A DNA stretch of 64,000 nt from contig CAZOXD010000001.1 in the NCBI GenBank assembly GCA_964583525.1, forward strand, positions 47,572 to 111,571, written 5' to 3'. Below the pieces are notes generated by a model, which saw only the letters and a list, made by a program, of their open reading frames with translations, was not told the origin of the DNA and ran no database searches. This document shows positions 6,544 through 24,806 of this stretch, in pieces (position 1 is the first letter of the stretch; every line of letters starts with the position of its first letter). This DNA is from an uncultured Pseudomonadota bacterium. GTDB lineage: Bacteria > SAR324 > JACQKK01. The position numbers were made by a program, and so were the translations under genes.

Positions 6544-6903
6544 GAATACAACTCCAATGAAGAATCGAATGGGAAAGTCCGGCGGCCGGAATATCAAGGA
6601 ATGAACTTCCGGGGCGGCACCGGGAACCATGGAAGACTTTACGATAGGGTCCGTTGCTTTCAGGAAACCCCATCGGCGGGAAAACGGCAAGGGGGAGGGC
6701 CGGGAGGAAACAGCCCCGTTTGATAATCCGGTTACGGCGAAGGAACTTCAGCTCGCATTCATCCGATTCTTCTCTCTCCGCGGCAGGGCAAGCGCCTGCT
6801 GGCCTGGGGAGACCGAAACCAGTCACGCCGCTTTTCTAAGAAGAGCAAACCTGTTAGGAGATCAGAAAGAGCGGGTCCAACCTAAAATCCAGGTGCACCT
6901 TCC

Positions 6904-7317: not shown

Positions 7318-7449
7318 CCCAGTGCTGCAAATTCCCCTCCATATTCGCGCAGGAATCCGCATCCCGCACCGGGATGATATCCCGGTGCGGAAGGGGGGAG
7401 GTTGGGAGGGGAAACGGCCCCCCATGGGAATAGTGCTTAATGGCAGAAC

Positions 7450-7532
7450 TTCGGGTCAGAAGTTATTGAGCTATATTCTTGTTTTGTAACATTAATAATA
7501 TCAGTTCCTATTGGGTGAGCTTCTGACCCGAA
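7450..7532. repeat. 13-bp perfect inverted repeat (ttcgggtcagaag / cttctgacccgaa) flanking a ~57-nt AT-rich spacer in the convergent HIT/GYD intergenic region
   Basis: Seen directly; possible bidirectional terminator or a small MITE-like or structured element; coordinates approximate. Confidence 0.5.
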
Positions 7533-7535
7533 ATA

Positions 7536-7829
7536 CTAGGGCAGCCCGGCAACGATTTCGCGGTACTCGTCTTCCGGGAAGGCGCGCAGGGATTCGGTGC
7601 GGACATTGCCTTGGGCCCCGATGGCCAGGGCCATTCTGGCGCCCGCCTTGTCGTCCGGCACCGTGCCGATGCTGATGGCGTCGAAGCGGCCCATGGTGAG
7701 ATAGAACGCCTGCAATTCCCCACCGATGGCCTTGTAGGCTTCCCTGGCGGCATCCAGCCGGGCGGGGCCTTCCTTGATGTTGGCGACTCCCTGTTGCGTG
7801 AAATTGATTAAAACGACGTAGGTTTGCAT
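7536..7829 (-). CDS. GYD-domain protein
   Basis: Internal start MQTYVVLINFTQQGVANIKEG...LTMGRFDAISIG; ~97 aa GYD-like. Confidence 0.55.
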   Translation of the reverse strand: MQTYVVLINFTQQGVANIKEGPARLDAAREAYKAIGGELQAFYLTMGRFDAISIGTVPDDKAGARMALAIGAQGNVRTESLRAFPEDEYREIVAGLP

Positions 7830-8178
7830 GAGAAATCTCCTTTCTGAACGGTGAAATCCCGGGAGTCCCAGAATCCCCAACCGGCGAGGCTATCAACTCC
7901 GGGATCGGCAGCCCCTTTGAGAAATTCAAGGGGTGAATGCAGGAAGACCTCTGCCTGATATGGAGGCAGACTGGCCCGATATTGGATTGGGATGAAGCCC
8001 AGGGGGATGAATTCCATGGCGAGCCTCCCGCGTGATTCCTCGTGCGCATGGATGCGCGGAATCGAAGGATGGCCTGCCTCCCTGCAGGGCCGGAGGGAGG
8101 ATCACGCTAACACAAATTATTGTTGGTGTGGAAGGGAATTCCCTTCCTTGATTTACAGCGGATTCGCCCTGAATTCGG

Positions 8179-9870
8179 TTACTCCAGCCCCGCCATTTCC
8201 CGCAGCAGGTTCCAGTTGGCCAAGCGGTCGGCCTGCGCCGCCAGCAGGGCTTCGGAGGGCTCCCCGTCCCGGGAGAACTGCTTGGCGAAGCGTCCCTCGC
8301 TGCGGGCGAATTCCACGAAGGTATAGGGCTCTTTGGTGGCCGGGTCGGGCGCCCAATCCTCGCTGAGGCCCGGGTTGCCCCGCAGGCTGAGGCGGTCGCG
8401 CAAGCGGGGCCCCTTGCGGGGGTCGTGAATCAGCATCGGAAATGCGCGGGACATCACCGCCCGGCGAGCCTGCGCCTGAGCCAGGTCGTCCGCCACGCCG
8501 TGTTCCGGCTGGCAGGTGGCGAACACGTTGACCACCGCCGGGCCGGGGTAGGAATTGGCCTCCCGGATGGCCTGGTAAAAGTGGTTGATATGCACCGTCG
8601 CCGTCTGGGCTACGTAGACGTCCGGGTGCATCATGGCGATGTTGGCCAACTCCTTGCGCCGCTCAACCTTGCCGGGAATCAGGCTCCCGTGGGGCGACAT
8701 TTTAGCGGCCTGGGAAGGCATGGATGCCGTGGACGCCTGCCCGCCGGTATTGGAATAGACCTGGGTATCGAGCACCAGCACCTTGATGTCCATTCCCGAA
8801 GCCAGCATCCGGCTCAGGGCCTGGAATCCGATATCGTACATGGCGCCATCCCCCCCCAGCACCCACAGCCGCTTGCGCTCCCACCCCTGTTGATCCCAGC
8901 GAGTGCGCACACCCATGGCCACCGTGGGGGCGTTTTCGAAGAGGGAATTGCTCCAGGTGACCCGGTAGGGATTGTAAGGGTAGGTGGAGCCGTAGACGGT
9001 GTTGCACCCCGTGGCGGCGATGATGCCGATCTCGTCCCGGGAATAGGCCTCCCCGGTGGCGGCCAGCATCATGCGGATGGCGGTAGTCTCCCCGCATCCC
9101 GCGCAGGATCCGGCCCCACCCACGTAAAGCAGGCAGGCATCCTCCTTGAGCATGGCATCCACGGGAAGCTTCTTTTCCAGGAATCGGGCGGGGGTTTCCG
9201 GTAGGGCCCGCATGTGTTCCGCCAGCGCGCGGTAACGGCCCAGCAGTTCCTCCTCCTTGGGTTCCATTGTCAGGGCGCCGTGACTCCCGCAGACTTCCAC
9301 GCATTCCCCGCACCCCTTGCATTTGGCGGGGTCCACGAAGATGGCGAACAATCCGCCGGCCGCCCCCTTTTTCTCCAGCAGGCCGTGGAATTTCTTGGTC
9401 TCGCACCAATGGGCGCGGAAAACGGCGCGTTCCACCTCGTCTCGGATGGCCTTTTCCTGTTCGGCCACGGCCTCCACTTCGGCCACTTTTCCCAGAATGG
9501 CCGTATCGGGGCAAGTGGTCACACATTCCATGCAGGCCACGCAATTTTCCGCAATGAGGCGGGGCAATTCCGGGGAAACATGGGAAAAATCCCGGAACAC
9601 TCCCGTACCCGGCGGAATGAGGGAGCGGGCGATTCCGGAATCAGCGGGGAGAGCCTCCGCCTTGCCCGAGGAATAGGCGCCGATCACCTGCTCGTTGAAC
9701 TGGCCCACGTACTCGTCCAGGTCCAACTCAAAGGAGGTGAACGCCCAGTGGGGACCGTGGGATTCCAGGGGCTGGTGGGCCTCCTTCATCAACGGCCCCT
9801 CCCCCTGCCCCGACGGGCGGCGGGAAGTAACGTGGGAAATGGTGGTTCGATCCTCTTCTGCGCGGGACAT
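8179..9870 (-). CDS. Pyruvate:ferredoxin (flavodoxin) oxidoreductase, C-terminal subunit (2x[4Fe-4S] ferredoxin domain + TPP-binding domain)
   Basis: CVACMECVTTCP and CKGCGECVEVCG ferredoxin motifs; GCAGCGET and GGDGAMYDIGFQ TPP motifs. Start MSRAEE at ATG ~9870, with GGAGGAG 6 nt upstream. Confidence 0.85.
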   Translation of the reverse strand: MSRAEEDRTTISHVTSRRPSGQGEGPLMKEAHQPLESHGPHWAFTSFELDLDEYVGQFNEQVIGAYSSGKAEALPADSGIARSLIPPGTGVFRDFSHVSPELPRLIAENCVACMECVTTCPDTAILGKVAEVEAVAEQEKAIRDEVERAVFRAHWCETKKFHGLLEKKGAAGGLFAIFVDPAKCKGCGECVEVCGSHGALTMEPKEEELLGRYRALAEHMRALPETPARFLEKKLPVDAMLKEDACLLYVGGAGSCAGCGETTAIRMMLAATGEAYSRDEIGIIAATGCNTVYGSTYPYNPYRVTWSNSLFENAPTVAMGVRTRWDQQGWERKRLWVLGGDGAMYDIGFQALSRMLASGMDIKVLVLDTQVYSNTGGQASTASMPSQAAKMSPHGSLIPGKVERRKELANIAMMHPDVYVAQTATVHINHFYQAIREANSYPGPAVVNVFATCQPEHGVADDLAQAQARRAVMSRAFPMLIHDPRKGPRLRDRLSLRGNPGLSEDWAPDPATKEPYTFVEFARSEGRFAKQFSRDGEPSEALLAAQADRLANWNLLREMAGLE

Positions 9871-9912
9871 GGACACTCCTCCCTGCTGTCGGTTTCAGCC
9901 TGCCGGGGCCTT

Positions 9913-12294
9913 TCAGGTCAGGCGCCCCGCGATCCTGGACAGATCCCCCATGGAGAGGATGCCGACGGGATGGCGGCGGTCCTCCGGCGATTCGGTCACC
10001 ACAAGCCGGTGCACCTGATGGGAGAGCATCTTGTTGACGGCCTCCTTGAGGGACTCCCCCGGCCAGGTGACGATCACGTCGCGTGTCATCAGGTGCCGGG
10101 GCAACAGGGCGGGCAACTCCATCCGCTCCACGGGGCTGAGCCGGGCGCGGGTCAAATCCGTGGTGGAAATGATGCCCTCCATTTCCTTGTTCTCGTTGGT
10201 GACCACCAGGGCGGAGACCTTCTGCTCGCTCATTTTCACCATCACTTCGGGGAGTGGTTGGTCCGCGCGGCATGTGATCACCCCCAGGTGCATGAACTCG
10301 CCCACGGTGTGGCCTGTAAAACGCTGCTGCTCCTCGTCCTCTGCCGCGGCCATCACGGATTGCGGAAGCTCCTTCACCTCGTGGAAGCCCCGTTGGACGC
10401 AACGCAGGTTGGCCATCACCACTTCCTCGGAGAGGCGGCCGAAGTATTTCCGCAGGGCCACTTCCGCCTGTTTCATCAACTCCTCGTCCTGCAGGTCTTG
10501 TTGTTCCCGGAAGGGCGCGCAGCGCAGGAAAACTCCCAGCAGGACGATTCCCTGCATGCGGATTTCCAGTTCCGGGAGGGGAGATTCCTGGCGTGCGATA
10601 CCGGCGGCATCCAGGTAGAACACCCGGGCCCCGGCCTGGCGCAGGCTTCTGCGGGAGGGCATGGGAAACTGCTTCCACAGCGCCGCCTCGCTTTCCGCCC
10701 CCTCCCCCGGCCACTGCACGAAGGCGATGCCCCGGTCACTCATTCCCTGGAACGGGTTGCCCATCTCCAGGGCGTTGATGGTGTTGATGGGCACGAATTC
10801 GGCGTGGTCCATCTCGCAGTGAGTGCGGATCGGGCTGTGGGCCAGGGTCAGGTAGTAATTGGTGGGCAGGCCCTTCTTCTCCGATCCGTAGCGGGGGTAG
10901 GCCTGCACGTGCAACCCGAACAATTCGGCGGATACGGTGGCGATCACCTTGTTGGTGGTCACCGATCCGAACCCCCCGATGGAATACCCACGCATGGAAA
11001 ACGCGCCCTCAGGGCGGAGATCGGGCGCTTCCGTGGCCTCCAGACTGGAGGGATGGGCGATGTTGAGGGTGAAAAAATCCTTCCGTCCTCCCTCCAGGGC
11101 CTCCACCAGCGCAATCAGGTCGGTGGTGCGCACGTCCCGGCTGCCCAGCCCGGCCGATCCGGAGAGAATTTCGGGAATCCGGTGGATCTGGGGATAGCCC
11201 GGGTGCCCGGTAAGCGCATCGAAAAACGAGGCCTTGAGTTCCGTGGTGAGCGGGTTGCTTTGGGCAATGGGATCGTCCATGCGCTCGATGACCGCCAAAG
11301 CCTTCACGTCCTTGAGCATTTCCACCAACTGGGGCCCGGGAAAAGGCCGAAAGGCCGTGGGGTGGACCACTCCGACCTTGATGCCCCGCTGCTCCCGCAG
11401 ATAATCGGCCACCACTTCCGCCGTTTCCGCGGTGCTGCCCAGCGCCACCAGGGCGTATTCCGCGCCGGCCATGCGATAGCCGTTGACCAGGCCATAGTGA
11501 CGCCCGGTGAGCCCGTGAAATTCTTCCATGGCCACTTCCAGCGCCATGGGCACTTGGCTGGTGTAGAAGCGCTGCGCGATCTTGCCCCGCATGTAGGCTT
11601 CCTGATTCTGCACCACGCCGGACATGATGCCATGCTCGGTATCGAATACGGGCCGCAGCCGCTCCCCGGGCGGTCCGATGTAACTGGCCATCAATTCCGG
11701 CTCGGGCAAGCGGATCGTCTCCAGGGTATGGGTGGTGAGGAACCCGTCCTGCACGTTCATGAAGGGGGTTTCCGTGGCCTCGGCGCAGCGCCGGGAAATC
11801 AGGCACAAGTCGGCGGCCTCCTGGGCGTTGCGGGCGAAGAGCATGCCCCACCCCACATCGGACACTCCCATCACGTCGTCATGGCCCGCATGGACGTTGA
11901 GCGCCTGGCTGGTCAAGGCCCGCGCGCCGATATTGAACACCACCGGAAGCCGCTTGCCGCTGATCACATAGAGTACTTCCTTCATCAGGATCAGGCCTTG
12001 GCCGGAGGTGAAGTTGGTCACACGGCCCCCGGCCAGGGCAAACCCCTCCGCGGCAGATGCTGAGGAATGTTCCGATTCGGCTTCCAGAAAGTGCAGGGTG
12101 TCTCCCCACAGGTTTTTCGCCCCGTTGGCGGCGGATTGGGCATATTGAACGCCCATGTTGGTGGAGGGTGTGATCGGAAAAGCGCAGGCGGCTTGGCTGA
12201 CGTGGGTTTCCACCCATACCACACCCCCAGTGCCATCGTCGGCCACCGGAATTCCGGGGAAGGGAGGCGGGGGCAGGTTGCGCTCTTCTTTCAT
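9913..12294 (-). CDS. Pyruvate:ferredoxin oxidoreductase, N-terminal subunit (domains I-IV) fused to a C-terminal CBS-domain pair
   Basis: PFOR domain I (AACAFPITPST...), transketolase-C-like domain II, domain III, then two CBS motifs (HTVGEFMHLGVITCRAD..., HLMTRDVIVTWPGESLKEAVNKMLSHQVHRLVVTE). Start MKEERNLPPPP chosen inside track ORF 9913..12345. Confidence 0.85.
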   Translation of the reverse strand: MKEERNLPPPPFPGIPVADDGTGGVVWVETHVSQAACAFPITPSTNMGVQYAQSAANGAKNLWGDTLHFLEAESEHSSASAAEGFALAGGRVTNFTSGQGLILMKEVLYVISGKRLPVVFNIGARALTSQALNVHAGHDDVMGVSDVGWGMLFARNAQEAADLCLISRRCAEATETPFMNVQDGFLTTHTLETIRLPEPELMASYIGPPGERLRPVFDTEHGIMSGVVQNQEAYMRGKIAQRFYTSQVPMALEVAMEEFHGLTGRHYGLVNGYRMAGAEYALVALGSTAETAEVVADYLREQRGIKVGVVHPTAFRPFPGPQLVEMLKDVKALAVIERMDDPIAQSNPLTTELKASFFDALTGHPGYPQIHRIPEILSGSAGLGSRDVRTTDLIALVEALEGGRKDFFTLNIAHPSSLEATEAPDLRPEGAFSMRGYSIGGFGSVTTNKVIATVSAELFGLHVQAYPRYGSEKKGLPTNYYLTLAHSPIRTHCEMDHAEFVPINTINALEMGNPFQGMSDRGIAFVQWPGEGAESEAALWKQFPMPSRRSLRQAGARVFYLDAAGIARQESPLPELEIRMQGIVLLGVFLRCAPFREQQDLQDEELMKQAEVALRKYFGRLSEEVVMANLRCVQRGFHEVKELPQSVMAAAEDEEQQRFTGHTVGEFMHLGVITCRADQPLPEVMVKMSEQKVSALVVTNENKEMEGIISTTDLTRARLSPVERMELPALLPRHLMTRDVIVTWPGESLKEAVNKMLSHQVHRLVVTESPEDRRHPVGILSMGDLSRIAGRLT

Positions 12295-12548
12295 GGACGA
12301 ATCCGCTGCGGAGAGTGATCCCGGGAGTCCAGGATTTCGCCCCATGCTAACCGGGGAAAACCGGTTCTGCCTTGATATACATCAAGTTGGACAGAGGCGC
12401 CGTCCACCCCCCGTGAATCCCGGATCGGCTCCCTGGGACGGAGCGAATGAACCGGGATATACCAAATTTCCGAAATCCTCCCTCAAGCATGCCAAAGATT
12501 TAAGCCTATTTGTCAGAAAAGGTCTTTCTCAAATCCCCTCGGATGTGA

Positions 12549-12985: not shown

Positions 12986-13471
12986 CTATTCCACCAGCGT
13001 AAAGTAGACCACCGCGTCGCCGATCAGGGTCGCTCCATCGGCCTCGTAGAGCGATGCGGTCAGGGTGCGCGGGCCCAGGGGCATGTCACTGCATTGGCCT
13101 CCCACGGTGATCTCGAAGGCGTCCCCCGCCGCCACTGTGTAGGGCTGCACGGGCATGATCTCCCAGGTGTCCGCGCCGGCGCAGCCCGCATCGAATATCA
13201 TCCCGATCTGCACGTCCACGTCGAAGTCCAGGGGATTGCTGGCCTGGGTGGTGCCGTTGATGAGGATGCCCCGCGAGACATCCCCCAGCACGATCTCGAT
13301 GGTTTGCGTGGACATTCCTGCCAGGGCCGGGCAGTAGCCTCCCGCCCCCTCGTTGGCCACTTCCGCGCAGGTGATCCGCACCTCCCCGCCTCCGCTCCCT
13401 CCATCCCCTCCGCAGGCCGCCAGCAGCAGCGCCAGCAGGCCCGTCAGGGCCAGGATTCCCTGTTTTTTCAT
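12986..13471 (-). CDS. Lipoprotein (signal peptide + lipobox LLAAC), last gene of the prophage late arm
   Basis: MKKQGILALTGLLALLLAACGG...; AAGGAG RBS upstream; followed by a terminator. Confidence 0.7.
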   Translation of the reverse strand: MKKQGILALTGLLALLLAACGGDGGSGGGEVRITCAEVANEGAGGYCPALAGMSTQTIEIVLGDVSRGILINGTTQASNPLDFDVDVQIGMIFDAGCAGADTWEIMPVQPYTVAAGDAFEITVGGQCSDMPLGPRTLTASLYEADGATLIGDAVVYFTLVE

Positions 13472-14745: not shown

Positions 14746-15939
14746 TCACAGGAGCCGCCCCGGCCCGTCGTCCAGAATCCCGAACAAGTCGTCGTCCAGG
14801 ATGAAGTCCTGATAGATCTGCGAGCCGTCCACCTGGATCGCCGAGCGGCCCCGATCCAGGTCGATCTCGTAGCCCATCACCCGCCAGGTGAAGGATGAGT
14901 TCACCCCGAGGTACCCGTCCACGATGCGCACCGTCTCCCCGATCTGCCGGGCCAGCGGCGTCAGCGCGCCCTCGATGCGGTATTTCTCGTAGGGGCTTGA
15001 AGCGAAGTCCACCAGCCGCTCGGCCAGGTTCTGCGCGGTGGCGCTGCTCACGTACCAGATGCTCTCGTCGCGCTCCACCTCCTCGCGCAGCCCGAAGGAG
15101 TTCACGGATGCGATATTGACGCCGAAGGTGGCGATGGTGTGATAACGCGAATCCACGTCGTAGGCGGCATAGACCCACTGCTTGTTGACTATCGCCTGAT
15201 CGTCGATCTCCAGCGTGATCCCCATGGCTGTGTCGTCGTCGATCAGCGTCTCGTGGGAATCGGCCTCGGCGAAGCGGAAGAACCCCAGCTTGTTGTTCTC
15301 CACAAAGATGGCTGAATTGGTGACCCGCCCCAGCCGCCGCAGGGCGTCGTTGACCTTCACCCCGTCGAAGCGCGCCTTCATGAAGACGTTGTCGCCGCTC
15401 CACACCCCGGCCCATGTCTCGAAGCTGGGGTAATCGATGTCCTCGTTGGCCGCGTCGCGGGAATCCACCAGGCCCCCATAGCAGGTGACCAGCGTCCAGG
15501 CGATCTCGGAGGGCAGGTAATCGGTATCGGTGAAGGTCACCGGCTCGTCCGAGGTGCCCACCACGGCTTCGGCGAAGTCCTTGATCTTGTCCAGCATCTG
15601 CAGGTTGACCAGCCCGCGCGAGTATTTCACCTTGTCCACCCGCCCCGTGAAGACGTCGATCAGCTCGTCCCCGGAATCGGGGTGCGTGAACCCGATGCTT
15701 ACCTTGCACTCGCTGCGCAGGTGGGTCTTGTCGTCCTTGAAAAAATTGATCTCCTGATCCTCGTTGCTCAGGTCGATCGACAACGCCACGGGCCGGATAT
15801 CGTTCCAACTGCGGGCCAGCCGCGGCCAGCGCAGCACCCGGCCGGAATAATCCGAATCCCCGATGGTGAAGACCCGCTTGGGCGCAGAGGTCTTCTCCGC
15901 CGTCTGATCCACAAACCACGATGTCACCTGGTAGGCCAT
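14746..15939 (-). CDS. Phage tail protein (distal tail / tip candidate)
   Basis: 397-aa ORF downstream of tape measure and the 117-aa gene; positional assignment. Confidence 0.5.
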   Translation of the reverse strand: MAYQVTSWFVDQTAEKTSAPKRVFTIGDSDYSGRVLRWPRLARSWNDIRPVALSIDLSNEDQEINFFKDDKTHLRSECKVSIGFTHPDSGDELIDVFTGRVDKVKYSRGLVNLQMLDKIKDFAEAVVGTSDEPVTFTDTDYLPSEIAWTLVTCYGGLVDSRDAANEDIDYPSFETWAGVWSGDNVFMKARFDGVKVNDALRRLGRVTNSAIFVENNKLGFFRFAEADSHETLIDDDTAMGITLEIDDQAIVNKQWVYAAYDVDSRYHTIATFGVNIASVNSFGLREEVERDESIWYVSSATAQNLAERLVDFASSPYEKYRIEGALTPLARQIGETVRIVDGYLGVNSSFTWRVMGYEIDLDRGRSAIQVDGSQIYQDFILDDDLFGILDDGPGRLL

Positions 15940-15950
15940 ATTTTAATATC

Positions 15951-16016
15951 CGGGCGGGCTTGCCCGCCTCCTGCCCTCCCCTCTCCGTTTGCGGAGAGGG
16001 GCAGGGGGGTGAGGTT
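15951..16016. repeat. Conserved structured intergenic element, copy A (gggcttgccc hairpin + cccctctcc-gtttgc-ggagagggg hairpin + ggggggtgaggtt)
   Basis: Near-identical to a second copy at 21620-21683; both sit in ~75-nt intercistronic gaps of the late operon. Read directly. Confidence 0.6.
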
Positions 16017-16368
16017 AGTACGTCTCCAGCTCGATCACGCCCTCGTAGAGATCGTCATGGGGCTTGATGAAGCGCCCGAAAGGCAGCCGCGAATTGACGA
16101 TCTGCACCGAGTTCACCGTGGCGTCGGAGGTGTTCATGAAGAGCAGCTTGGTGTTGGAGTCCCACCAGGAATTGACCGCCCAGGCGTCCGCCGAATCGAT
16201 GAAGCGCGCCGTGAACTTCCAGCGCTCGTAGCCGCCCCAGCGGTAGCGGAACATCGCTCCGGAGCGCACCCGGTGGGCGTCCTCCACCTTCACGTTCTCC
16301 TGCAAGAAATCCCATTCGGGCTCGAAGCTCACCGAATTGGCGCTGTCCACAAAGAGATCCCAGGGCAT
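16015..16368 (-). CDS. Hypothetical phage tail-associated protein
   Basis: 117-aa ORF immediately downstream of tape measure. Confidence 0.45.
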   Translation of the reverse strand: MPWDLFVDSANSVSFEPEWDFLQENVKVEDAHRVRSGAMFRYRWGGYERWKFTARFIDSADAWAVNSWWDSNTKLLFMNTSDATVNSVQIVNSRLPFGRFIKPHDDLYEGVIELETY

Positions 16369-16369
16369 C

Positions 16370-18352
16370 TCAGACCCCTCCCCGGCCGCGCTGGGCGAAG
16401 TTGGGCCTCACGCCGCTGCGATCCAGGTTGTCCAGCGCCTTGATGATGGGCCCGGCCACGATCTCGCGCATGTCGCGGTCGTCCATCCGCATCAGGGTGT
16501 CGAAGTTGGTGGCGTTCTCCAGAATGTGGACGTTGAGGTTTTCAACGGTGATGGATGAGCCTCCCCCGCCCCCCTGTCCCCGCAGGAAGGCCGTCAAGTC
16601 CCGGTTTTGCAGGGGGGAGAGCACCCTTTCCCCCTGTTGCAGCAGGAAGGTCTGCTCGGCGGGCACGCTGGTCAATCCTCCATGCGCCGCGGGCGGCTTC
16701 TGCTTGGAGATCATCGCCGCGTTGGCCAGGCCCTGCGCCACGGCCGCGGCCGCCAGCACGTAGCTCAGCGGGGGCGGCGCGCTCGCCAGCGCCTTGGTGG
16801 CCGCCAGATAGGTGGCGATGATGGTCTGCCCGTAGGCCAGCGCCTTGTAGAGCTTGAAGGTCTTGGCCCCGCTCACCCGCGCCAGCGCCGCGAAGCCCCG
16901 CAGCGCCGTCTGGCTCTGCGCCAGCCGCGCATCCAGCGCCGCTTTTTCGATCTCCAGGATGGCCCGGTTGTGATCCTCGATGACGGCCTGTTCCAGGGAG
17001 TGGTTGCCCGCCGCCGTTTCCATGCGGCGCTGGAACTGCTCGTTTTCCAATACGAGCCGCCGATCGAAGTCCGTGACCATGTTCTCGAAGGCGATCTGGC
17101 GCATCAGGTCTTGTTGCTCCAGGTTGCGCTGCGCCGCAGCGGCTTCCATGGCTTCCACGAACCCGGCGAATTCGCCTTGTTTCGCCAGGACTTCATTCTG
17201 GTATTGCTCCAGCCGGGCCAAGCGGGAATCGTTGGCCTGCTGCTCGATGAGGGCGGCTAAGTGCGCGAAACTGGATGCCTCGGCGGCCAGTTCCGCATTG
17301 GTCTGGGCGGTGGCGGCGATCCTGGCGCGCTCGGCATCCACCCAGGACTGCACCCGCTCTTCGGCCACCCGCACCTCATGGGCGAGCAGCCCGTCCGCCA
17401 TTTTCTGTTGCGCCTCCAGCGCCGCCTTGCTGACGAGCGTGACCTGCGCCTGTTTGGCCGCGACCGCCCCCAGCGTTCCCCCAAAGTCGCTGTAGGCCAT
17501 GTCCGCTTCCCGCGTGGCCTGGGCGTTCTCGCGCAGGGTATCAATCCCGGCCCGCATCAGCCGGTAGGCCGCCGCGGTGGGGGGAAACCATTTCAGCCAG
17601 GCGTCCAGCCAGGACAGGATTTCATCCCGGTGCTCGCGGTAGAGGAACACGCCGTCCTCCATCACCTTGAAAAGCTCGGTGAGGGCGGGAATCACCTCGT
17701 CCGCTGTCTCCTTGCTCAACCCCCCCAGGGCGCTGTTGAGGCCCAGCAGGGCGTCGTTGAAGCGCGACGCGGCCTCGGCGTCGTCGGTGCCGATGACGAT
17801 TCCCAGCCGTTCGGCTTCCTCCCCCGCCTTTTTGAAGCCCGCCGCGCCTTGCGTCATGGTCTGCAAGAGCGCCACGCCCTCGGAATCGAACAGCTTGAAG
17901 GCCAGGCGCACCTTGTCGCTGTTGCTTTCCACGCCGTGCAGGGCCTCGGCGAAGGTGCGCAATTGCTCGTCGGGGGTCATCCGGCCCAGCTTCTCCGCGT
18001 CCAGGCCCAGCTCCCGGATGGCGTCCTTGGCCTCGCCGGTGCCCACGGCGGCCTCCCCCACGCGGCGCGTCATGCGCTGCAGGGCCATGTCCAGCGTAGC
18101 CGTGGCCACCCCGGAAAGCCGGGCCTGGAAGTGCAGCTTGCTCAGCTCCTCGGTGGTCAGCCCCAAGCGCTGCGAGGTCTTCAGCGCGGCGTCCTCGGAC
18201 TTGGCGAACCTGTTGGCGAGAGCGAACACAGCCGCACCCGCCGCCGTGGCCGCGGCCGCTACCAGCGTGATCTGCCCGCGCAGGCCCGAGAAGCCTTTGG
18301 AGAACTCGTCGCGCGCCCGCAGCGAGAATTCGATTGTGTTGCCCAGCGCCAT
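16370..18352 (-). CDS. Tail tape measure protein
   Basis: 660 aa, Ala/Gln-rich coiled-coil repeats (LEQQDLMRQIAFENM...) and a hydrophobic C-terminal region; sits after the chaperone and frameshift pair. Confidence 0.8.
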   Translation of the reverse strand: MALGNTIEFSLRARDEFSKGFSGLRGQITLVAAAATAAGAAVFALANRFAKSEDAALKTSQRLGLTTEELSKLHFQARLSGVATATLDMALQRMTRRVGEAAVGTGEAKDAIRELGLDAEKLGRMTPDEQLRTFAEALHGVESNSDKVRLAFKLFDSEGVALLQTMTQGAAGFKKAGEEAERLGIVIGTDDAEAASRFNDALLGLNSALGGLSKETADEVIPALTELFKVMEDGVFLYREHRDEILSWLDAWLKWFPPTAAAYRLMRAGIDTLRENAQATREADMAYSDFGGTLGAVAAKQAQVTLVSKAALEAQQKMADGLLAHEVRVAEERVQSWVDAERARIAATAQTNAELAAEASSFAHLAALIEQQANDSRLARLEQYQNEVLAKQGEFAGFVEAMEAAAAQRNLEQQDLMRQIAFENMVTDFDRRLVLENEQFQRRMETAAGNHSLEQAVIEDHNRAILEIEKAALDARLAQSQTALRGFAALARVSGAKTFKLYKALAYGQTIIATYLAATKALASAPPPLSYVLAAAAVAQGLANAAMISKQKPPAAHGGLTSVPAEQTFLLQQGERVLSPLQNRDLTAFLRGQGGGGGSSITVENLNVHILENATNFDTLMRMDDRDMREIVAGPIIKALDNLDRSGVRPNFAQRGRGGV

Positions 18353-18933
18353 CTACTTCCTCTCCTTGGAGACCTGATCGGAGATCAGACCGAACATTTC
18401 CACCGTGAGATTTTCCTGCGCCGGATACCCGCCCGGCACGGGCCAGTCGTTGCGCGTCATGCTTCCGCCGTCTCCGGGGGAGTGGCAGTGCCGCCAGGCA
18501 TCCCACCAGACTGCGAAGGGGTGTCCTCCAACGACGATTCGCTCCTTTTGCCGGAGTCCGCCGCAGACTCTTGCGACAGCGTTGCGGACTTTTTTGCCGT
18601 TTCATCCCCCAACAACGATTCCTCGATCAGCAGGGCTCCCATTTTGTCGACGAGGTTGTTGAAGTAGGAATGCGTCAGCATCTGATCCAGCGTGGCTTCC
18701 CGGCCGCCGATGGTCAGCCCGTGGAATTCCGTCACATAATCAGGGAGGATCGCCGCGACTCCCTGCACCGAATCCAGGAACACCTGGTACACGCTTTGCC
18801 CCTCCTCCCTCACCAGTCCCATGGATGGGGCCAGCTTGATCTGATCGGCCCGCGTGAGGCGCTTCATGCGCCCGGTGACCACGTCCCCGTCGAACTCGAT
18901 CCGAAACTCGAAGTCCGGTGTGAATGCGCTCAT
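18353..18933 (-). CDS. Predicted -1 frameshift fusion product of the tail chaperone (GT-like), extended ~80 aa and stopping exactly at the tape-measure start
   Basis: -1 frame downstream of A_AAA_AAG reads VRNAVARVCGG...MTRNDWPVPGGYPAQENLTVEMFGLISDQVSKERK* and ends with TAG immediately before the ATG of the tape measure (manual translation). Confidence 0.45.
18457..18933 (-). CDS. Tail assembly chaperone (G-like) ending in a low-complexity tail that contains the slippery site
   Basis: 158 aa between the tail tube and tape measure; contains ...ETAKKSATLSQ... encoded by gca aaa aag. Confidence 0.55.
   Translation of the reverse strand: MSAFTPDFEFRIEFDGDVVTGRMKRLTRADQIKLAPSMGLVREEGQSVYQVFLDSVQGVAAILPDYVTEFHGLTIGGREATLDQMLTHSYFNNLVDKMGALLIEESLLGDETAKKSATLSQESAADSGKRSESSLEDTPSQSGGMPGGTATPPETAEA
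18589..18595 (-). other. Canonical -1 programmed ribosomal frameshift heptamer A_AAA_AAG in the tail chaperone gene
   Basis: Minus-strand gca aaa aag (plus strand ctttttt g) in the zero frame; position fixed from track coordinates (K114-K115 of the 158-aa ORF). Confidence 0.55.
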
Positions 18934-18979
18934 CGTTCCTCACTGTAATTGAGGGTGAAATATTGCACGGTCTGTTGCG

Positions 18980-19945
18980 TCAATACGCGGCCTGTGCGTT
19001 GCCCAGGATCACCTGCAGGCCCGTGGCCGAGTTGACCGAGTAGACCCCGGCCGCCGAGATCGAGACCTCCATTTCGCCCGGCCCGCCCGCCAGCGGCTTG
19101 AACTCTTTGTAGCGCAGCAGCGGCGCCTTGATGGTGCAGATCTCGTTGTAGCCGCTCTGCACCGCGGTGGAGCCCTCGAAGTGGAGGATCAATTCGCGCT
19201 CGGCCTGGGTGAGAAACTGCTGGTACTCGTCCTGATCGTCGAACTTGAGCGTCCCGTCGATGCTGATGGCCCGGGAGCCCGTGCGCTTGACCCGGCTGGG
19301 CACCTTGGAATTATTGAGGGTGTGCATCGCTTCGAGCTGTTCCTCGATCTTCACGGTGAACTGGGTGAACTGATCCACCGCCGCGCCGCCCAGTTGGGAA
19401 GATCCCTGATCCCACGTCCAGAGCTTGTTGGTGGGGTAGCTGGCCGCCGCCGCCACCACCTGGGAGTAGGCCCCGCCCACGATGCCCAGCTTGGCCTTGA
19501 GCAGCTCCCCCGCGCTGATGTTCAGCTCCAGCGAGGCCCCCACCAGATCCTGGTAGAGGAAGGCGCTGCCGGCGTCGTCCATGTATTTTTGCAGCGTGAA
19601 GGGGTTGCCCGCGGACAGCTTGTCGAAGTCGCTCGTCCTCGGCTCGAAGGTGTGGGTGTAGAGCGCGTCGGAGGTGACCGTGGCGGGCGGCCCCAGCACC
19701 GCTTTCAGCAAAACGCCCAGGGAAACCGGGTCGGCTTCCATCTCGATCTCCCCGGGGATGGAGGTGGGCCCCTCGTAATAGTCCCCCTCGTCGAAGATGC
19801 CCCGCATGCCCTGCGCCACCAGGGGCGGCTTCTCAATCCCCACGCCCTCGCTCAGGGCGGGCAGCCAGAAGTAGCTGTCCTGATTGAGCGTCCCGTAGCT
19901 GTTCTGGAAGCTCAGCCCCAGCCTGAAGTTCTGTCCGTAGCTCAT
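18980..19945 (-). CDS. Major tail (tube) protein
   Basis: 321-aa ORF immediately upstream of the chaperone and frameshift pair; no sheath gene present, so a siphovirus-type tail. Confidence 0.6.
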   Translation of the reverse strand: MSYGQNFRLGLSFQNSYGTLNQDSYFWLPALSEGVGIEKPPLVAQGMRGIFDEGDYYEGPTSIPGEIEMEADPVSLGVLLKAVLGPPATVTSDALYTHTFEPRTSDFDKLSAGNPFTLQKYMDDAGSAFLYQDLVGASLELNISAGELLKAKLGIVGGAYSQVVAAAASYPTNKLWTWDQGSSQLGGAAVDQFTQFTVKIEEQLEAMHTLNNSKVPSRVKRTGSRAISIDGTLKFDDQDEYQQFLTQAERELILHFEGSTAVQSGYNEICTIKAPLLRYKEFKPLAGGPGEMEVSISAAGVYSVNSATGLQVILGNAQAAY

Positions 19946-20151
19946 GTTGCCTCCTCGTTATCCGCCTGCGTTTTGGACTGCGCTTTGCCGGGCTTTTGCG
20001 CCAGGCGTTGCTCTATATAATTGTCGGCCAGTTCCACCGGCAGGGTTTTCTTTTCGCCGGGCCGGGCCATGCCATGGCCGGGAATGAACTTCTCCTCGCC
20101 CGTCCAGACGATTTCCCGCGTCATGCGGGGCGCTCCGATCTTTTCGCTCAT
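19942..20151 (-). CDS. Small hypothetical head-tail protein
   Basis: Internal start MSEKIGAPRMTREIVWTGEEKF... inside track ORF 19942..20466; 4-nt overlap with the neighbouring gene. Confidence 0.4.
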   Translation of the reverse strand: MSEKIGAPRMTREIVWTGEEKFIPGHGMARPGEKKTLPVELADNYIEQRLAQKPGKAQSKTQADNEEAT

Positions 20152-20600
20152 GCCGTCCTCTTCTCGCATTGAATGGAAATCATGGAGTACTGCACCCGCA
20201 GCGTCTCCGAATCGAACTCGTTGAAGCCGTCCTCCACGGTCAGCCCGGTCACCTGATCCACCGTGCCGCCCAGGGTGAAGTCGGTTTTGAGGGCGTTCAG
20301 CACGTCGGTCTCGTACTCGCAGAGCAGATCCTCGGCGTCCGCGCCGTCCTTGTAGCTGGCCGCCAGCACGATCACCCGGAAGACCAGCTCGCCCTTCAGG
20401 TTGCGCCCGCCGCTGGCGATGGTGGCCGGATCGTACTCGACGCCATCGCGGTAGACCCCGATCCACGGCGCGGCCTCGGGGTTCATCTCCGCGAAGTTGG
20501 CCCGCTCCACCTGGTAGGGCTTTCCGTCGTCCGTGGCCGGGGGAAGCTGATCCTCCAGCAGGGCCACGATGGCCTTGGTGATATCGGCCCGGTTGATCAT
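20148..20600 (-). CDS. Phage head-tail joining / tail completion hypothetical protein
   Basis: 150-aa ORF in the connector block; translational coupling overlaps on both sides. Confidence 0.45.
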   Translation of the reverse strand: MINRADITKAIVALLEDQLPPATDDGKPYQVERANFAEMNPEAAPWIGVYRDGVEYDPATIASGGRNLKGELVFRVIVLAASYKDGADAEDLLCEYETDVLNALKTDFTLGGTVDQVTGLTVEDGFNEFDSETLRVQYSMISIQCEKRTA

Positions 20601-21139
20601 ATGCGCTTCCCGATCGGTTTCATGGCGTGCAGCCCCTTGCGCAGGTTGCGCTCGAAAATTTTCCGGATATCGTTGCGCACCTCGCTGTGTTTGGGCAGCA
20701 GCCGCCGTTCGGGCAGATCGCCCAGCCCCTCATGGTGGGCCTCGGCGTAATCCAGGTCGGAGCCGATGCCCGCGTTATTGGCCGTGGCGAAGGGGACAAA
20801 GCTGAGGCGCAGCCGCCCGGTGTCCTGCAAAATCTTGAAGCGCGCGGCAGCCAGCGGCACGGCGCCGCCGAAGCCCCGCACGTTGCGGACGCCCCGGAAG
20901 TTCCCGCCGCGCAGGTTCTTGCGAATGCGCCCCAGCACCGTCGCCGGCGCCAGCGGCTCCCAGCCGCCCACGTTCCCGCCCTCGGAGCGGAAGTTCTTCT
21001 GCACCCACCTGTCCAGGAACACCGCCGCCTGCTTGTAGCTGGTGTTTACCCAACTGCGCTTGAGCCCCTTGAGCGCCTTGTCCGTGCGCGCTTTGAGCAC
21101 GGCGGCGGGGGGATCCATCTTCATTTCAATGCGGGGCAT
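20597..21139 (-). CDS. Phage virion morphogenesis (head-tail) family protein
   Basis: 180 aa, ...WEPLAPATVLGRIRKNLRGGNF...AARFKILQDTGRLRLSFVP..., resembles the virion morphogenesis/gpS-like family. Confidence 0.45.
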   Translation of the reverse strand: MPRIEMKMDPPAAVLKARTDKALKGLKRSWVNTSYKQAAVFLDRWVQKNFRSEGGNVGGWEPLAPATVLGRIRKNLRGGNFRGVRNVRGFGGAVPLAAARFKILQDTGRLRLSFVPFATANNAGIGSDLDYAEAHHEGLGDLPERRLLPKHSEVRNDIRKIFERNLRKGLHAMKPIGKRI

Positions 21140-21147
21140 GGCTGCTC

Positions 21148-21606
21148 CTAATCACGCGCGTTCTCCTCGTCGTTGACCATGTCCGAGTCCACCCGGAAGG
21201 CCAGGGTGTCGCCGTGGCCGAAGATGGGGTGGTAGTTCGCCGTGTTGGAGAAGGCCGCCCCGCCGCCTCCGGAGGCCGCCAGTTGGGTGCCGTCGTCGAG
21301 CACCATCACTTCGCGCCCGGCGATCAGGGCCTCGATGCGGGCCTCGATGGCGTCCTGTATCGCCTTGGCCTTTTTGCCGTCGTGGGGTCTCTGCCAGCGG
21401 GCGTAGACCAGATCGACGGTCAGATCCTTGGCGGTGAGGTTGGTGGGCGTAAAGGGCGCGGTGAAGTACGCGCCCAGCTTGGCGTCCAGCTCCAGCTCGG
21501 CCGGGGCGATCCAGGCGGAGTCCACCCGCGCCGCGTCGGAATCCACCCGGCTCAGGGACGGATAACGCGCCAGCACGTCCGCGCTCCAGCTTGCGTAGGT
21601 TCCCAT
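21148..21606 (-). CDS. Head-tail connector protein (Mu gp36/DUF1320-like candidate)
   Basis: 152-aa ORF first after the GT gene in the connector block. Confidence 0.4.
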   Translation of the reverse strand: MGTYASWSADVLARYPSLSRVDSDAARVDSAWIAPAELELDAKLGAYFTAPFTPTNLTAKDLTVDLVYARWQRPHDGKKAKAIQDAIEARIEALIAGREVMVLDDGTQLAASGGGGAAFSNTANYHPIFGHGDTLAFRVDSDMVNDEENARD

Positions 21607-21619
21607 GGCTCAATTTCCG

Positions 21620-21683
21620 CGCGGGCAAGCCCGCGTCCAGCCCTCCCCTCTCCCGTTTGCGGAGAGGGGTTGGGGGTGAGGTT
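21620..21683. repeat. Conserved structured intergenic element, copy B (gggcaagccc hairpin + cccctctccc-gtttgc-ggagagggg hairpin + gggggtgaggtt)
   Basis: Matches copy A at ~55 of 63 positions; sits between the GT gene stop and the connector gene start. Confidence 0.6.
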
Positions 21684-24600
21684 TCACCAATACTTTCCGC
21701 CCAGATCGGCGGTCTTGTTTTCAATGGCCTTGCGCGCCAGCAGTTGCAGGTCTTCCACGCTGGCGAAGTACCCCTCCACCGCCGAGACGTCCGCGGGCTT
21801 GCCGTTGAACTGCATGGCCGCGTCCACCCCGAAGGCCGCCTCGAAGCCCTCCCCCAGCACCCGCGCGTGGTTGGAGTAGAACTCCACGGCGTCCTTGGCC
21901 CAGCGCACAAAGCCGCCCTCGGCCAGTTCGCGCCACAGGGCGATGCCCTCCCGGGCCCGCTCCATGACGGCCTCGGTGATCACCATCCCGTTGCGCTGCA
22001 GCTCGTAGCGGTTCACGTGCTCCAACTCGCGGATCCACAGAAACTTGGCCAGGTTGCGCTCGGGATACTTCTCGCGGTCGCGGATGAAGAGCGGGTGATT
22101 GCGCTGAAAGCGCTTGAGGCGGGTGGACTCGTCGTCGTAGCCGTCGTGGGCCACGGTGATCTCCGGAGGCAGCGCCATCGCCCAGCCCTGGCCCTCGTTC
22201 AAGCCCGTCTCCGGGTGCTCGTGCACCATCCCGATGAAGCGCATGCCGATGTGGTTGCGGAATATCTTGGCCGGCAGGTCGATCTTGTCGATGCCCAGCG
22301 GCTCGAAGCCATAGTGCACCTGGCGCATGGCGTAGGCGTTGAATTGGTTGGGGCGCAGGTAGAGCGCCAGGGTTTCCGCCCCGTGCAGCACCTCGTCGTG
22401 ATCGAGCCAGAGAATCCACTGGCAGGACGCCCGCTCCACCGTGGCGTTGCGGGCCTCGTCGAAGCCCACCTCCAGCGGAGACTTGCCGGGGAAGATCCGC
22501 ACGGCGATATCCGGGTAGTCCTCCACAAAGGCGTGGATCACATCCTCCGTGCGATCGCTCGTCGTCTCGTCCAGGGCGATCACCAGCTCGTCGATGATGG
22601 GCGCCGCGCTATCCAGGCAGCGCCGCAGCCGCGCCTCGCCGTCTTTCACGATCATGGCCAGGGTCACGGTCTCGCGCGGGGCCTGCACGGAGAACTTGCG
22701 GGCCATGTCGATGGCGCGGCTGCCTTCCGTGGGCTTGGCGTAGTGGGTGACAAAGCTCCCCAGCGCCTCCCCCCGCGCGGTCTGGCCCGCCGAGGTCATC
22801 ACGATCCCGAAATCCGGGTGATGGCCGAACATCTCGAACAGGTCGGCGCGCTCCAGGTGGTGCAGGTGCGCCCGCCAGGGATGGTGCTGGCGGTACTTCT
22901 GCCCTTCCCAGGGCCCGAAGGGCGTGGTGATCACCATCCGCCCGCCTTCCTTCAGGGACTCGGCCAGCCTGTCGGCCAGGGCGCCCGGATCGTTGACGTG
23001 CTCCAGCACCTCGGCGGCGATGATCAGGTCGAAGGGATCGGCTAAATACCGCATGGGTACTTCATCGCCGAACAGGAACGCCACATTCTTCACATCGTCT
23101 TTTTCCCTCCAGGCCTTGGCCTTCTCGATGTTGGAGGCCACCAGGTCGATCCCGATGAACTCCAGCTTGGGGAAGCGCTTGGCCAGGTTGATGGTGTAAT
23201 GGCCGTGGGCGCAGCCGTAGTCCAGCACCCGCGCTCCCTCGGGCAACTGCCCCACGTGGCGGGCCACCGTCTCGTAGCGGGCGTTGCCGTCCAGTTCCTC
23301 CGGCCCGTACTCCATCCCGCGCTCCGCCTCGTAGCGGTAATAAGCCGCGTAGTGCCCGGCGAAGGTCTCCTCCCGCGCGAAGGCGTAGCACTCGTCCAGG
23401 TCGGCCTCGATCCTGGCGGCCACGGGATGTCCGCCCCAGTGCGGGCTATCCTTCAGGTCATTCGGCGTGGCTTTGATGGCGCGTTCCAACACCTTGATGT
23501 CTGAGAGCCGGTGCAGGTGCTTGCCCACGGCCACGGAGTTGGAGGTCTTAGCGGCGAGGATCTCCGCCACCGTTTCCTCGAAGACGTCCGCCGAGGTTTC
23601 CCAGGTGTGGGGGAAATGCCGGGGGACGCTCATCCCGGGCGAGGTCAGGGCAATCTGTTCCATGAACGCGTCGATGTCCGGCCCGCCGTTCTTCAAGGGA
23701 ATCAGCCCCGCGCCGTCGTACTCGTCCACCGTATCGGGCAGCGCCCCCACGTCCGAGGCGATGATAGGCAGCCCGGCCGCCATCGCTTCCATGGCGGAGA
23801 TGCAACTGGTTTCCTCGAAGTCCGATGGGTAGACCCAGGCGTCGGCGCAGCGCTGCACGCCGGCCAGTTCGGCCTTGGTGAGATAGCCCAGGGCGGTGCA
23901 GTTGGGCAGCGCCTCGATACGGCCCCACAACTCGCGGTAGAGAGGCGCCATCTCGGGCGTGGTGTTGTCGTAGCCGCAGACAAACAGGTGGTAGCGCGGG
24001 GCATCCGGACTCATGGACTCGCTGCACGCCAGGCGCTCCATGATGCCGTCCGGGGCCACCAGGTGTTCCAGGCCGCGCTCCGGACGCGAGACGTAGATCA
24101 GCTTGACCACGTCCCCGCCGCCGCCATGGTGCAGCTTGACCAGATCGCGCATCCGCTCGGCGATGTTATTGGTGCCGGACTCGATCTTGCCCTCGTAGAG
24201 CGCCGGGTCGATCCCGTTGGGGAGCGGCTTGACGATTTCCGGGCGCACGCCCCAGGCCTCGGCCACCTGCAGGCCGTGCCAGGCCGACACCGGGAGCAGC
24301 GCGTCCACGTTCCAGAGCGATTGCGCGGCCAGGGAGCGCAGGCGTTTCCGCGCCAGGTCGTGCAGCCAGAGCAGGTTGCACTTGGAATTCCAGGCGAAGG
24401 CGAACCCCAGCGGGTTGCGCTGGATGACGATCGCGTCGTTTTGCAGGTAGCGGGCCCGGTAGTGAAAGGCCTCGCCCAGCGGCTTCTCGGGGCTGACCGC
24501 GCCGTGATACACGTAGGTCACGCCATCCCAGCGGCCTTGATCGCGGCTGCTGGTGAACACGGTCACGTTGTGATCCCGCGCCACCAGTTCCCGCGCCAGG

Positions 24601-24692
24601 TAGTAGGCCGCCGACTCCGATCCGCCCAGCGACTGCTGGGCAATCGTCTCTCCGTTGAAGGGCATCCCGCCCGCATGAATCGTGATGAACAT
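21684..24692 (-). CDS. Three-domain glycosyltransferase-methyltransferase: GT4 (group 1) glycosyltransferase + class I SAM-dependent methyltransferase + GT2 glycosyltransferase, ~1003 aa, embedded in the phage structural module
   Basis: GT4 N-terminus (MFITIHAGG...GGSESAAYYLARELVARDHNVTVF); MT motif (VLDYGCAHGHYTINLA...FDLIIAAEVLEHV); GT2 (LAMIVKDGEARLRRCLDSAAPIIDELVIALDETTSD...WILWLDHDE). Start chosen at the internal Met of track ORF 21684..24767. Confidence 0.75.
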   Translation of the reverse strand: MFITIHAGGMPFNGETIAQQSLGGSESAAYYLARELVARDHNVTVFTSSRDQGRWDGVTYVYHGAVSPEKPLGEAFHYRARYLQNDAIVIQRNPLGFAFAWNSKCNLLWLHDLARKRLRSLAAQSLWNVDALLPVSAWHGLQVAEAWGVRPEIVKPLPNGIDPALYEGKIESGTNNIAERMRDLVKLHHGGGGDVVKLIYVSRPERGLEHLVAPDGIMERLACSESMSPDAPRYHLFVCGYDNTTPEMAPLYRELWGRIEALPNCTALGYLTKAELAGVQRCADAWVYPSDFEETSCISAMEAMAAGLPIIASDVGALPDTVDEYDGAGLIPLKNGGPDIDAFMEQIALTSPGMSVPRHFPHTWETSADVFEETVAEILAAKTSNSVAVGKHLHRLSDIKVLERAIKATPNDLKDSPHWGGHPVAARIEADLDECYAFAREETFAGHYAAYYRYEAERGMEYGPEELDGNARYETVARHVGQLPEGARVLDYGCAHGHYTINLAKRFPKLEFIGIDLVASNIEKAKAWREKDDVKNVAFLFGDEVPMRYLADPFDLIIAAEVLEHVNDPGALADRLAESLKEGGRMVITTPFGPWEGQKYRQHHPWRAHLHHLERADLFEMFGHHPDFGIVMTSAGQTARGEALGSFVTHYAKPTEGSRAIDMARKFSVQAPRETVTLAMIVKDGEARLRRCLDSAAPIIDELVIALDETTSDRTEDVIHAFVEDYPDIAVRIFPGKSPLEVGFDEARNATVERASCQWILWLDHDEVLHGAETLALYLRPNQFNAYAMRQVHYGFEPLGIDKIDLPAKIFRNHIGMRFIGMVHEHPETGLNEGQGWAMALPPEITVAHDGYDDESTRLKRFQRNHPLFIRDREKYPERNLAKFLWIRELEHVNRYELQRNGMVITEAVMERAREGIALWRELAEGGFVRWAKDAVEFYSNHARVLGEGFEAAFGVDAAMQFNGKPADVSAVEGYFASVEDLQLLARKAIENKTADLGGKYW

Positions 24693-24806
24693 CTTCCCTG
24701 ATGCTCCCGGTTTGGGCCGCCTCCCCATTGACAGGATAGGCGACGAATTAGATAATTTTCTTAGCATTCAAGCCAAGGATGGCTCCCTCATTGGAAAGGA
24801 TTCCTC

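Follow-up and report, generated by a model that had tools for sequence, protein, structure and literature searches.

The window, that is, the whole stretch of 64,000 nucleotides (nt) analyzed here, is a piece of bacterial chromosome with a prophage at roughly 12.5-57 kb, and the question that it raises concerns two junctions in the prophage's late operon. Most other late-gene junctions measure -4 to +8 nt, whereas at these two the genes are held apart by 75 and 77 nt of closely similar, stably folding sequence, and these spacers are the only two long gaps in the examined stretch of the operon. Are they signals by which the phage controls its genes, marks of its modular construction, or something that merely settled there? 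We consider it probable that both spacers are copies of a ~75-nt repeat of the BoxC/PIT/TM family (TM, triplex motif), a known class, and that this repeat is a tolerated passenger from the repeat pool of the host lineage. The locus contains an ordinary type of repeat at a somewhat uncommon site rather than a control signal specific to the phage.

The triplex-motif core of the two spacers

Copy A (15940-16014, minus strand) is the entire 75-nt spacer between the stop codon of a gene of 117 amino acids (aa) and the start of a 397-aa gene. Copy B (21607-21683, minus strand) is the entire 77-nt spacer between the stop codon of a 1027-aa gene, which encodes a GT4-methyltransferase-GT2 fusion, and the start of a 152-aa gene. 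The initial annotation had described a conserved double-hairpin element occurring twice at these sites, and alignment, a repeat scan, and pattern searches all bear this out. Over ~100 alignment columns the copies share 84% mean column identity, and their common core, GCCCTCCCCTCTCC(C)GTTTGCGGAGAGGGG followed by NNGGGGG(G)TGAGGTT, is uninterrupted. In the repeat scan of the window they form an 81-nt family of two copies (15936-16016 and 21603-21683; family D5). Pattern searches allowing up to 3 mismatches found no third copy in the window, and shuffled windows did not give even one pattern match (0/100). Each copy had also been said to follow a stop codon directly and to fill a ~75-nt gap before the next gene, which holds in the sense of the transcript, with the correction that the genes lie on the minus strand.

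Both copies contain a 9-bp stem (CCCCTCTCC/GGAGAGGGG) and a separate 6-bp stem. The latter belongs to a small GC hairpin, not assigned to a strand, that is located at 15951-15968 in copy A (GGCGGG-CTTG-CCCGCC on the + strand) and at 21620-21635 in copy B (CGCGGG-CAAG-CCCGCG on the + strand). Between the copies this small stem differs by one compensatory change of a G-C to a C-G pair, and its loop is flipped. Folding of 87-nt RNA segments covering the copies yielded energies of -43 to -49 kcal/mol (z = -2.8 to -4.4 against shuffles), and the two GC-rich hairpins proposed earlier are thus both real.

What had been overlooked is a third domain. On the + strand, each copy consists of a pyrimidine arm CCCCTCTCC, a loop of 6-7 nt, a purine arm GGAGAGGGG, a second loop of 3-4 nt, and GGGGTGAGG, which is the exact mirror of the purine arm (9/9, with T or A facing the two A's). 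The core of copy A (15978-16014, on the G-rich + strand) is composed of the pyrimidine arm at 15978-15986, loop 1 (GTTTGC), the purine arm at 15993-16001, loop 2 (CAGG), and the mirror domain at 16006-16014. In copy B (21645-21681, + strand) the same parts are found at 21645-21653, CGTTTGC, 21661-21669, TTG, and 21673-21681, and the mirror triads are perfect (9/9) in both copies. A purpose-written scan of the window for a pyrimidine arm, a purine arm, and a reverse-Hoogsteen domain in this order found these two 9/9 motifs and no others, and the motif occurred in none of 200 Markov-simulated windows.

By its sequence, the core is a class II purine intrastrand triplex motif. Such motifs have pyrimidine and purine arms of at least 8 nt that are perfectly complementary, and here 9 of 9 positions pair in both copies. 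The third domain is expected to be an antiparallel reverse-Hoogsteen mirror made of G·G-C, A·A-T, or T·A-T triads, which is what both copies contain. Loop 2 measures 4 nt in copy A and 3 nt in copy B, inside the range of 1-6 nt. Loop 1 has 6 nt in copy A and 7 nt (or 6 nt plus a bulged C) in copy B, the latter exceeding the ITxF range (1-6 nt) by 1 nt and lying within the range of Hoyne et al. (0-10). Both copies are intergenic, and the same core recurs in genomes, metagenomes, viral contigs, and a relative of the host, as would a dispersed multi-copy element. In a Watson-Crick fold of the single-stranded DNA (ssDNA), the reverse-Hoogsteen domain is unpaired and lies 3' of the hairpin.

The triplex motif of Escherichia coli, earlier known as BoxC and PIT, was renamed TMECO by Holder et al. 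2015 (NAR 43:10126, PMC4666352), who give CCCTCTCCCTGTGGGAGAGGGCCGGGGTGAGGGC as an example. The motif of the window is offset by one base from the published TMECO pattern and falls under the general definition. It is therefore counted as a member of the BoxC/PIT/TM family, of which it is a register-shifted variant bearing an extra hairpin.

Distribution of the repeat family

Searches with long sequences revealed little: the exact pattern of the long element has 0 matches in IMG/VR, cultured phages and plasmids yielded nothing informative either to megablast with the 10-kb region or to blastn with the element, and Rfam gave no match to the window at gathering thresholds (relaxed best E ~0.2-0.9, far under the gathering scores). 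The core, on the other hand, is widespread. The exact hairpin with a GTTTGC loop was found at 24 loci in species-representative genomes, including nine contigs of one metagenome-assembled genome (MAG), and these loci belong to Planctomycetota, Acidobacteriota, Armatimonadota, Chloroflexota, Fibrobacterota, SAR324, and unclassified MAGs. The same hairpin occurs at 120 or more metagenome loci, nearly all of which continue into GGGGTGAGG. For hairpins with non-canonical stems, a perfect mirror third strand was observed in 31 of 124 hairpin-strands, compared with 1 and 2 in the parallel and permuted controls, respectively. Since the third strand covaries with the purine arm, the fetched loci represent one coherent family in the sense of the literature. 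Among 174 distinct family copies, conservation stops ~7 nt before the pyrimidine arm and 1 nt past the third strand, from which it follows that the small GC hairpin and the A/T tail are specific to the subfamily of the window copies; neither is present in any database copy.

In high-GC organisms, loop 2 contains a 17-20-nt GC hairpin with GNRA-like loops while the third strand is kept, and inverted doublets occur in high-GC members of the family. The loop-2 types TTA and CCG of the E. coli motif are also present among the fetched loci. Several soil contigs (L046, L050, L107, L128, L133, and others) carry a ~55-nt hairpin (GTCGCCTTTGGGGTCGG...CGACCCCAAAGGAC) within loop 2, again with GGGGTGAGG kept. 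The long sequence shared downstream of the hairpin in the soil copies was also considered as an insertion sequence that targets the repeat, which was rejected as it comprises only this loop-2 hairpin followed by the usual third strand. In a minority of copies (L105, L152, L060, L079, L130, and others) the GTTTGC loop is inverted relative to its flanks, which, together with the flipped loop of the small hairpin in copies A and B, suggests frequent loop inversion in these palindromes. Finally, GGGGGTGA was examined as a possible Shine-Dalgarno sequence and dismissed: some copies are indeed located ahead of a start codon, but the majority face a stop codon on the opposite strand, as in the window.

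The repeat also occurs in the lineage of the host. The aldehyde oxidoreductase (AOR) in the host flank of the window is 80% identical to that of the unclassified MAG GCA_035266845.1 (DATFMP010000018.1, SMAG_U9228; L316), the closest available relative of the host, and the region is syntenic. A 21.8-kb syntenic sample of this genome contains one copy with the same pyrimidine arm, purine arm, and third strand, and copies with a GTTTGC loop are located on two further contigs (L008 and L018). The presence of the same arms and third strand in this relative establishes that the host lineage carries a BoxC/TM-type repeat, and the window copies were most likely drawn from that pool. Its next-nearest named homologues are from Lambdaproteobacteria/SAR324. 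In a comparison with positions 1-12400 of the window, the upstream side of the oxidoreductase gene is taken up by OmpA and TetR genes in this genome and by the prophage in the window.

Viral contigs carry the family as well. In IMG/VR, the signature of purine arm and third strand was found in at least 120 stretches, and at least 101 complete motifs have exactly the arms of the window copies. An unrelated phage contig (L202) with genes for terminase, portal, scaffold, major head, adaptor, and Neck1 contains three complete motifs (11021-11054, 11386-11419, and 13405-13438) that fill 34-40-nt gaps of its late operon. They are oriented as in the window, with ACCTCACCCC 3-4 nt past the stop codon, and one of them is followed by CTTTTT. 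In another viral contig (L263, IMGVR_UViG_3300020057_000061, positions 1730-2830), tandem arrays of three and four motif units with a 72-nt period flank a gene. An interpretation of these arrays as CRISPR was rejected because the "spacers" are identical and the sequence between the units is itself repeated.

The initial annotation had listed a small REP-like repetitive element among its candidates, and this proved to be the right one, the core being a dispersed repeat of many phyla, of the host's nearest relative, and of viral contigs. It had also remarked that a generic genome-wide repeat would render the phage location incidental, and dispersed copies of the BoxC/PIT/TM type are essentially what was found.

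The orientation of the copies was recorded in a census of 71 classifiable copies, for which genes were called crudely from open reading frames (ORFs) and the GC content at third codon positions (GC3). The G strand was antisense to two co-directional genes, which is the configuration of the window, in 37 copies and the opposite in 17 (p = 0.009). The gene on the side of the third strand was antisense in 48 copies versus 23 (p = 0.004), and in 21 of these 48 its stop codon was within 20 nt. Of 78 pairs of copies located more than 300 nt apart on one contig, 71 were co-oriented. We take these biases as a lead and not as a result, as the gene calls are rough and the counts are not independent of gene co-orientation or of sampling.

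Related phages and the rival explanations

Host genes are present at both ends of the window (aldehyde:ferredoxin oxidoreductase, 2-oxoacid:ferredoxin oxidoreductase, and thiolase). The prophage encodes a Mu-type portal fused to MuF and, in a divergent block of + strand genes, an rve-family transposase. Its late genes are transcribed from the minus strand. Along the transcript, the major capsid region is followed by the 1027-aa gene (21684-24767), copy B, the 152-aa gene (21148-21606), which is the first of the connector/tail block, and tail completion; next come tail terminator, tube, chaperones, tape measure, the 117-aa gene (16015-16368), copy A, and the 397-aa gene (14746-15939), the conserved partner of the 117-aa gene. 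A GGAG/GAGG Shine-Dalgarno sequence precedes most other late genes and is missing in front of the 397-aa and 152-aa genes (15925-15939 and 21592-21606), of which the former has no GGAG-type Shine-Dalgarno sequence and the latter a weak one. The tail of the element (CGGAWATT..) is the sole sequence upstream of both.

How these junctions look in other phages was determined from 42 loci that were found by alignment of tube-protein homologues (27-59% identical); the 397-aa protein as a single query had found no relatives in IMG/VR. The triplex motif is absent from all of these loci (0/42), including the syntenic junctions. Of 25 relatives, 24 have the 117-aa and 397-aa genes joined by TAATG or TGATG at a distance of -1 to +3 nt, and where the 1027-aa and 152-aa genes adjoin, their distance is -4 to +9 nt in 7 of 8. 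At the latter junction, 17 of 25 relatives (L161-L188) carry additional genes amounting to 0.4-6.7 kb, which makes it a hotspot of variable cargo in this phage family. At the 117-aa/397-aa junction, an insert of 1.07 kb was found in one relative (L179). Another (L181) has an unrelated 46-nt hairpin at the 1027-aa/152-aa junction and is the sole relative with a hairpin at these junctions.

The genes next to the spacers are intact. Homologue alignments span the C-termini of the upstream genes (to the very end in 26 of 26 relatives for the 117-aa gene) and begin at residues 1-3 of the downstream genes (in 23 of 26 for the 397-aa gene), and this end-to-end agreement means that the spacers are pure additions. 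Considering the absence of the motif from the 42 loci and the tight or overlapping junctions there, both copies appear to be lineage-specific insertions. They could represent two separate insertions or one insertion followed by copying within the phage. The 1027-aa gene occupies the same place in the relatives and is thus not a moron, so that the edge of this gene, which had been suggested as a module boundary, is that of a conserved family gene and not of an inserted module. Its product, a fusion of GT4, S-adenosylmethionine (SAM) methyltransferase, and GT2 domains, shows 36-46% identity across 27 related phage loci, always between the major capsid and connector genes; it is a family-wide enzyme within the structural module, possibly acting in the modification of virion or host glycans.

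We regard the element as a tolerated passenger and not as an evolved control element of the phage, a selected function being possible. As a passenger, it would combine a triplex-motif core with a small GC hairpin and a short tail rich in A/T, and two paralogous copies of it would have entered two stop/start junctions of one prophage lineage. The late operon uses the G-rich strand as its template, and the transcript carries the C-rich complement, in which the 9-bp hairpin starts 13-15 nt past the stop codon. At the DNA level, the copies would give the template strand the potential to form a hairpin plus third strand, and such motifs are associated with local sequence variability. The purine-motif triplex forms only in DNA (PMC4666352). 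At the RNA level, only the C-rich sense transcript with its stable hairpin would be made. The structured 75-nt spacer would replace translational coupling and supply no good Shine-Dalgarno sequence, and the net effect may be a modest, REP-like shift in the relative expression or stability of the flanking cistrons.

Several observations weigh against the passenger interpretation. The strict TMECO pattern (CCCTCNCCC N3-6 GGGNGAGGG N3 GGGNGAGGG) has no match on either strand of the window, a consequence of the register shift. The ~18 kb of host flank in the window contains no motif, which makes the host origin indirect, and all database copies lack the prefix GCCCT and the left small hairpin seen in the window, leaving the exact subfamily without a known source. 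Moreover, the relatives share only ~45-60% protein identity, and the boundaries of the insertions deduced from them are approximate. Lastly, a purely neutral passenger would not explain the orientation preference of the family.

Among the rival explanations, the copies could be sites of recombination or instability that mark or create module boundaries, being scars of, or substrates for, the gain and loss of cargo. Copy B is indeed located at the cargo hotspot, and one relative has an insert at the copy A junction. The two direct copies also bracket a 5.6-kb block of connector, tail, and tape-measure genes, and in E. coli, sequence varies significantly more at TM loci than at intergenic control sites (PMC4666352). 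The position of copy B fits this reported link of the motifs to variable regions, although causation is not proven. However, the relatives that carry cargo at these junctions do so without the motif, copy A separates two genes that 24 of 25 relatives have retained as a coupled pair, and a deletion between the copies would take out essential tail genes. Furthermore, TMECO ssDNA forms a stable triplex in vitro, but none was detected in vivo (PMC4666352). We consider a recombination site unlikely for these reasons. The proposal that the element marks module boundaries accordingly survives in a loose sense for copy B but not for copy A, whose tail-module gene pair normally overlaps.

A related and likewise unlikely idea is that BoxC/TM elements are mobile units which insert in a preferred orientation just 3' of stop codons, phage late operons included, with the C-rich strand transcribed, and which act on the RNA as modules that protect 3' ends or uncouple translation, by way of a stable hairpin and perhaps also of a class IV (pyrimidine-motif) RNA triple helix to which the 5' CCUCACCCC tail would contribute. 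If this were true, the two clean insertions described here and the arrangement in the unrelated phage contig would be the first before-and-after evidence of mobility and target choice.

The third possibility, which we regard as rather improbable, is a cis-regulatory signal that evolved in the phage, either an attenuator or terminator or a site of RNase processing or stability that determines in what ratio the enzyme, tail, and distal-tail proteins are made. The copies are placed exactly between cistrons, and they fold stably with a hairpin close behind the stop codon. A REP hairpin located no more than ~15 nt from a stop codon reduces expression of the upstream gene in E. coli, and 3' hairpins stabilize the upstream mRNA, both of which would suit such a role. 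The copy followed by CTTTTT in the unrelated phage contig could be a terminator, so that some copies of the family could terminate transcription. The two window copies, in contrast, have no U-tract, as the transcript behind the hairpin reads CGGAUAUUAAAAUAUG and CGGAAAUUGAGCCAUG, and an intrinsic-terminator scan calls neither site; neither, therefore, is an intrinsic terminator. Both copies have tail genes downstream of them, the element is missing from the 42 related loci with their overlapping junctions, and outside phages this sequence is found in many settings as a generic repeat. PIT elements, moreover, showed neither promoter nor terminator activity in E. coli (summarized in PMC4666352). 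The terminator or attenuator envisaged in the initial annotation is not upheld by these findings.

A miniature inverted-repeat transposable element (MITE) that is moved in trans by a transposase and duplicates a TNA target is a very unlikely source. In the sense of the transcript, a 3-nt direct repeat that equals the upstream stop codon brackets each copy (TAA...TAA in copy A and TGA...TGA in copy B), and the insertions between intact genes are clean. Given only two events, the triplet could belong to the element itself or match by chance. The ends match at ~5 of 9 positions when read by eye and do not form convincing terminal inverted repeats, the 174 family copies have no conserved target or duplication, and no candidate transposase was identified.

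Chance, or GC-rich hairpins that arose from composition without a common origin, can practically be dismissed: the genome is GC-rich (62.6%) with frequent antisense and low-complexity runs, but the 0/100 shuffles, the 0/200 simulations, and the 81 shared nt, which include non-stem positions, refute it. The interpretation as a passenger repeat of the BoxC/PIT/TM family is thus the one that we prefer.

Other repeats and a promoter-like site were noted elsewhere in the prophage. A 462-aa ORF between the terminase-like and portal genes (31045-32433, minus strand) consists largely of ~22-aa tandem repeats (APPLGTFTLAGQVPAVAxGASV), which correspond to a DNA repeat family with a 66-nt period (D1). 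Three tandem 108-nt units with an offset of 66 nt (D2) are located in the + strand early region at 50567-50806. Downstream of the rve transposase, the paralogous gene pair 46748-47746 and 48220-49245 (+ strand) shares 67-nt and 43-nt stretches that are 77-87% identical (D6 and D18). A sigma-70-like site (24728-24756, + strand; TTGACA-17-GATAAT, 11/12 positions) is antisense to the start of the 1027-aa gene.

Significance and comparison with known systems

In itself the element is of little importance, as it belongs to a known class of bacterial repeats and nothing points to control of this phage. It does offer a natural experiment for a family whose function and spread are unexplained, because the insertion states are clean and the ancestral TAATG/TGATG junctions can be inferred. 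The orientation preference and the co-orientation within contigs point to a strand-specific process, be it insertion, replication, or selection at the RNA level. For annotation, caution is advised: such spacers should not be called terminators or phage regulatory RNAs.

The copies resemble the intrinsic terminators at moron boundaries, which are also GC-rich stem-loops directly past a stop codon in late operons. Unlike these, they have no U-tract, and the 1027-aa gene upstream of copy B is a conserved family gene. The MIRU repeats of mycobacteria, with 40-100 nt, likewise fill intra-operon gaps and abut stop and start codons. MIRUs are direct tandem units that carry small ORFs preserving translational coupling. 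By contrast, no small ORF with a standard start codon was seen in the window copies when they were read by eye.

The REP and BIME sequences of enterobacteria and pseudomonads are, like the window element, short GC-rich palindromic intergenic repeats. Both kinds are often located behind the stop codons of genes within an operon and give rise to stable hairpins in the RNA; REP and BIME sequences can alter the relative expression of the flanking cistrons, and the window element may do so too. Compared with REP/REPIN elements, the window copies have no GTAG head, and neither of them forms a doublet; evidence of a RAYT transposase is likewise lacking, but a RAYT gene was not searched for. The mirror third strand that defines the window element is not a feature of REP sequences. 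A REP sequence is usually confined to one species or genus, but the window core is nearly identical across phyla.

The closest counterpart is the BoxC/PIT/TMECO motif. It was found in 23 copies in MG1655 and in 3610 copies in 262 proteobacterial genomes, is always intergenic, and forms inverted doublets at some loci (PMC4666352). The window family is likewise strictly intergenic and multi-copy, with inverted doublets in some genomes. In E. coli, the motif showed no association with phages, plasmids, or transposons and no orientation bias (PMC4666352). The window copies, on the contrary, sit in a prophage late operon, the fetched loci are biased in orientation and co-orientation, and the family is common in uncultivated viral contigs, contrary to the statement based on E. 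coli. The repeat unit of the window also differs from TMECO in its additional small GC hairpin and A/T tail and in its register, which is shifted by one base. The architecture, however, is shared: a 9-nt pyrimidine arm, a loop of 3-7 nt, a 9-nt purine arm, a loop of 3-4 nt, and a 9-nt mirror strand of G, T, and A. Written side by side, CCCTCTCCC-TGT-GGGAGAGGG-CCG-GGGTGAGGG of E. coli and CCCCTCTCC-GTTTGC-GGAGAGGGG-CAGG-GGGGTGAGG of the window are near-identical.

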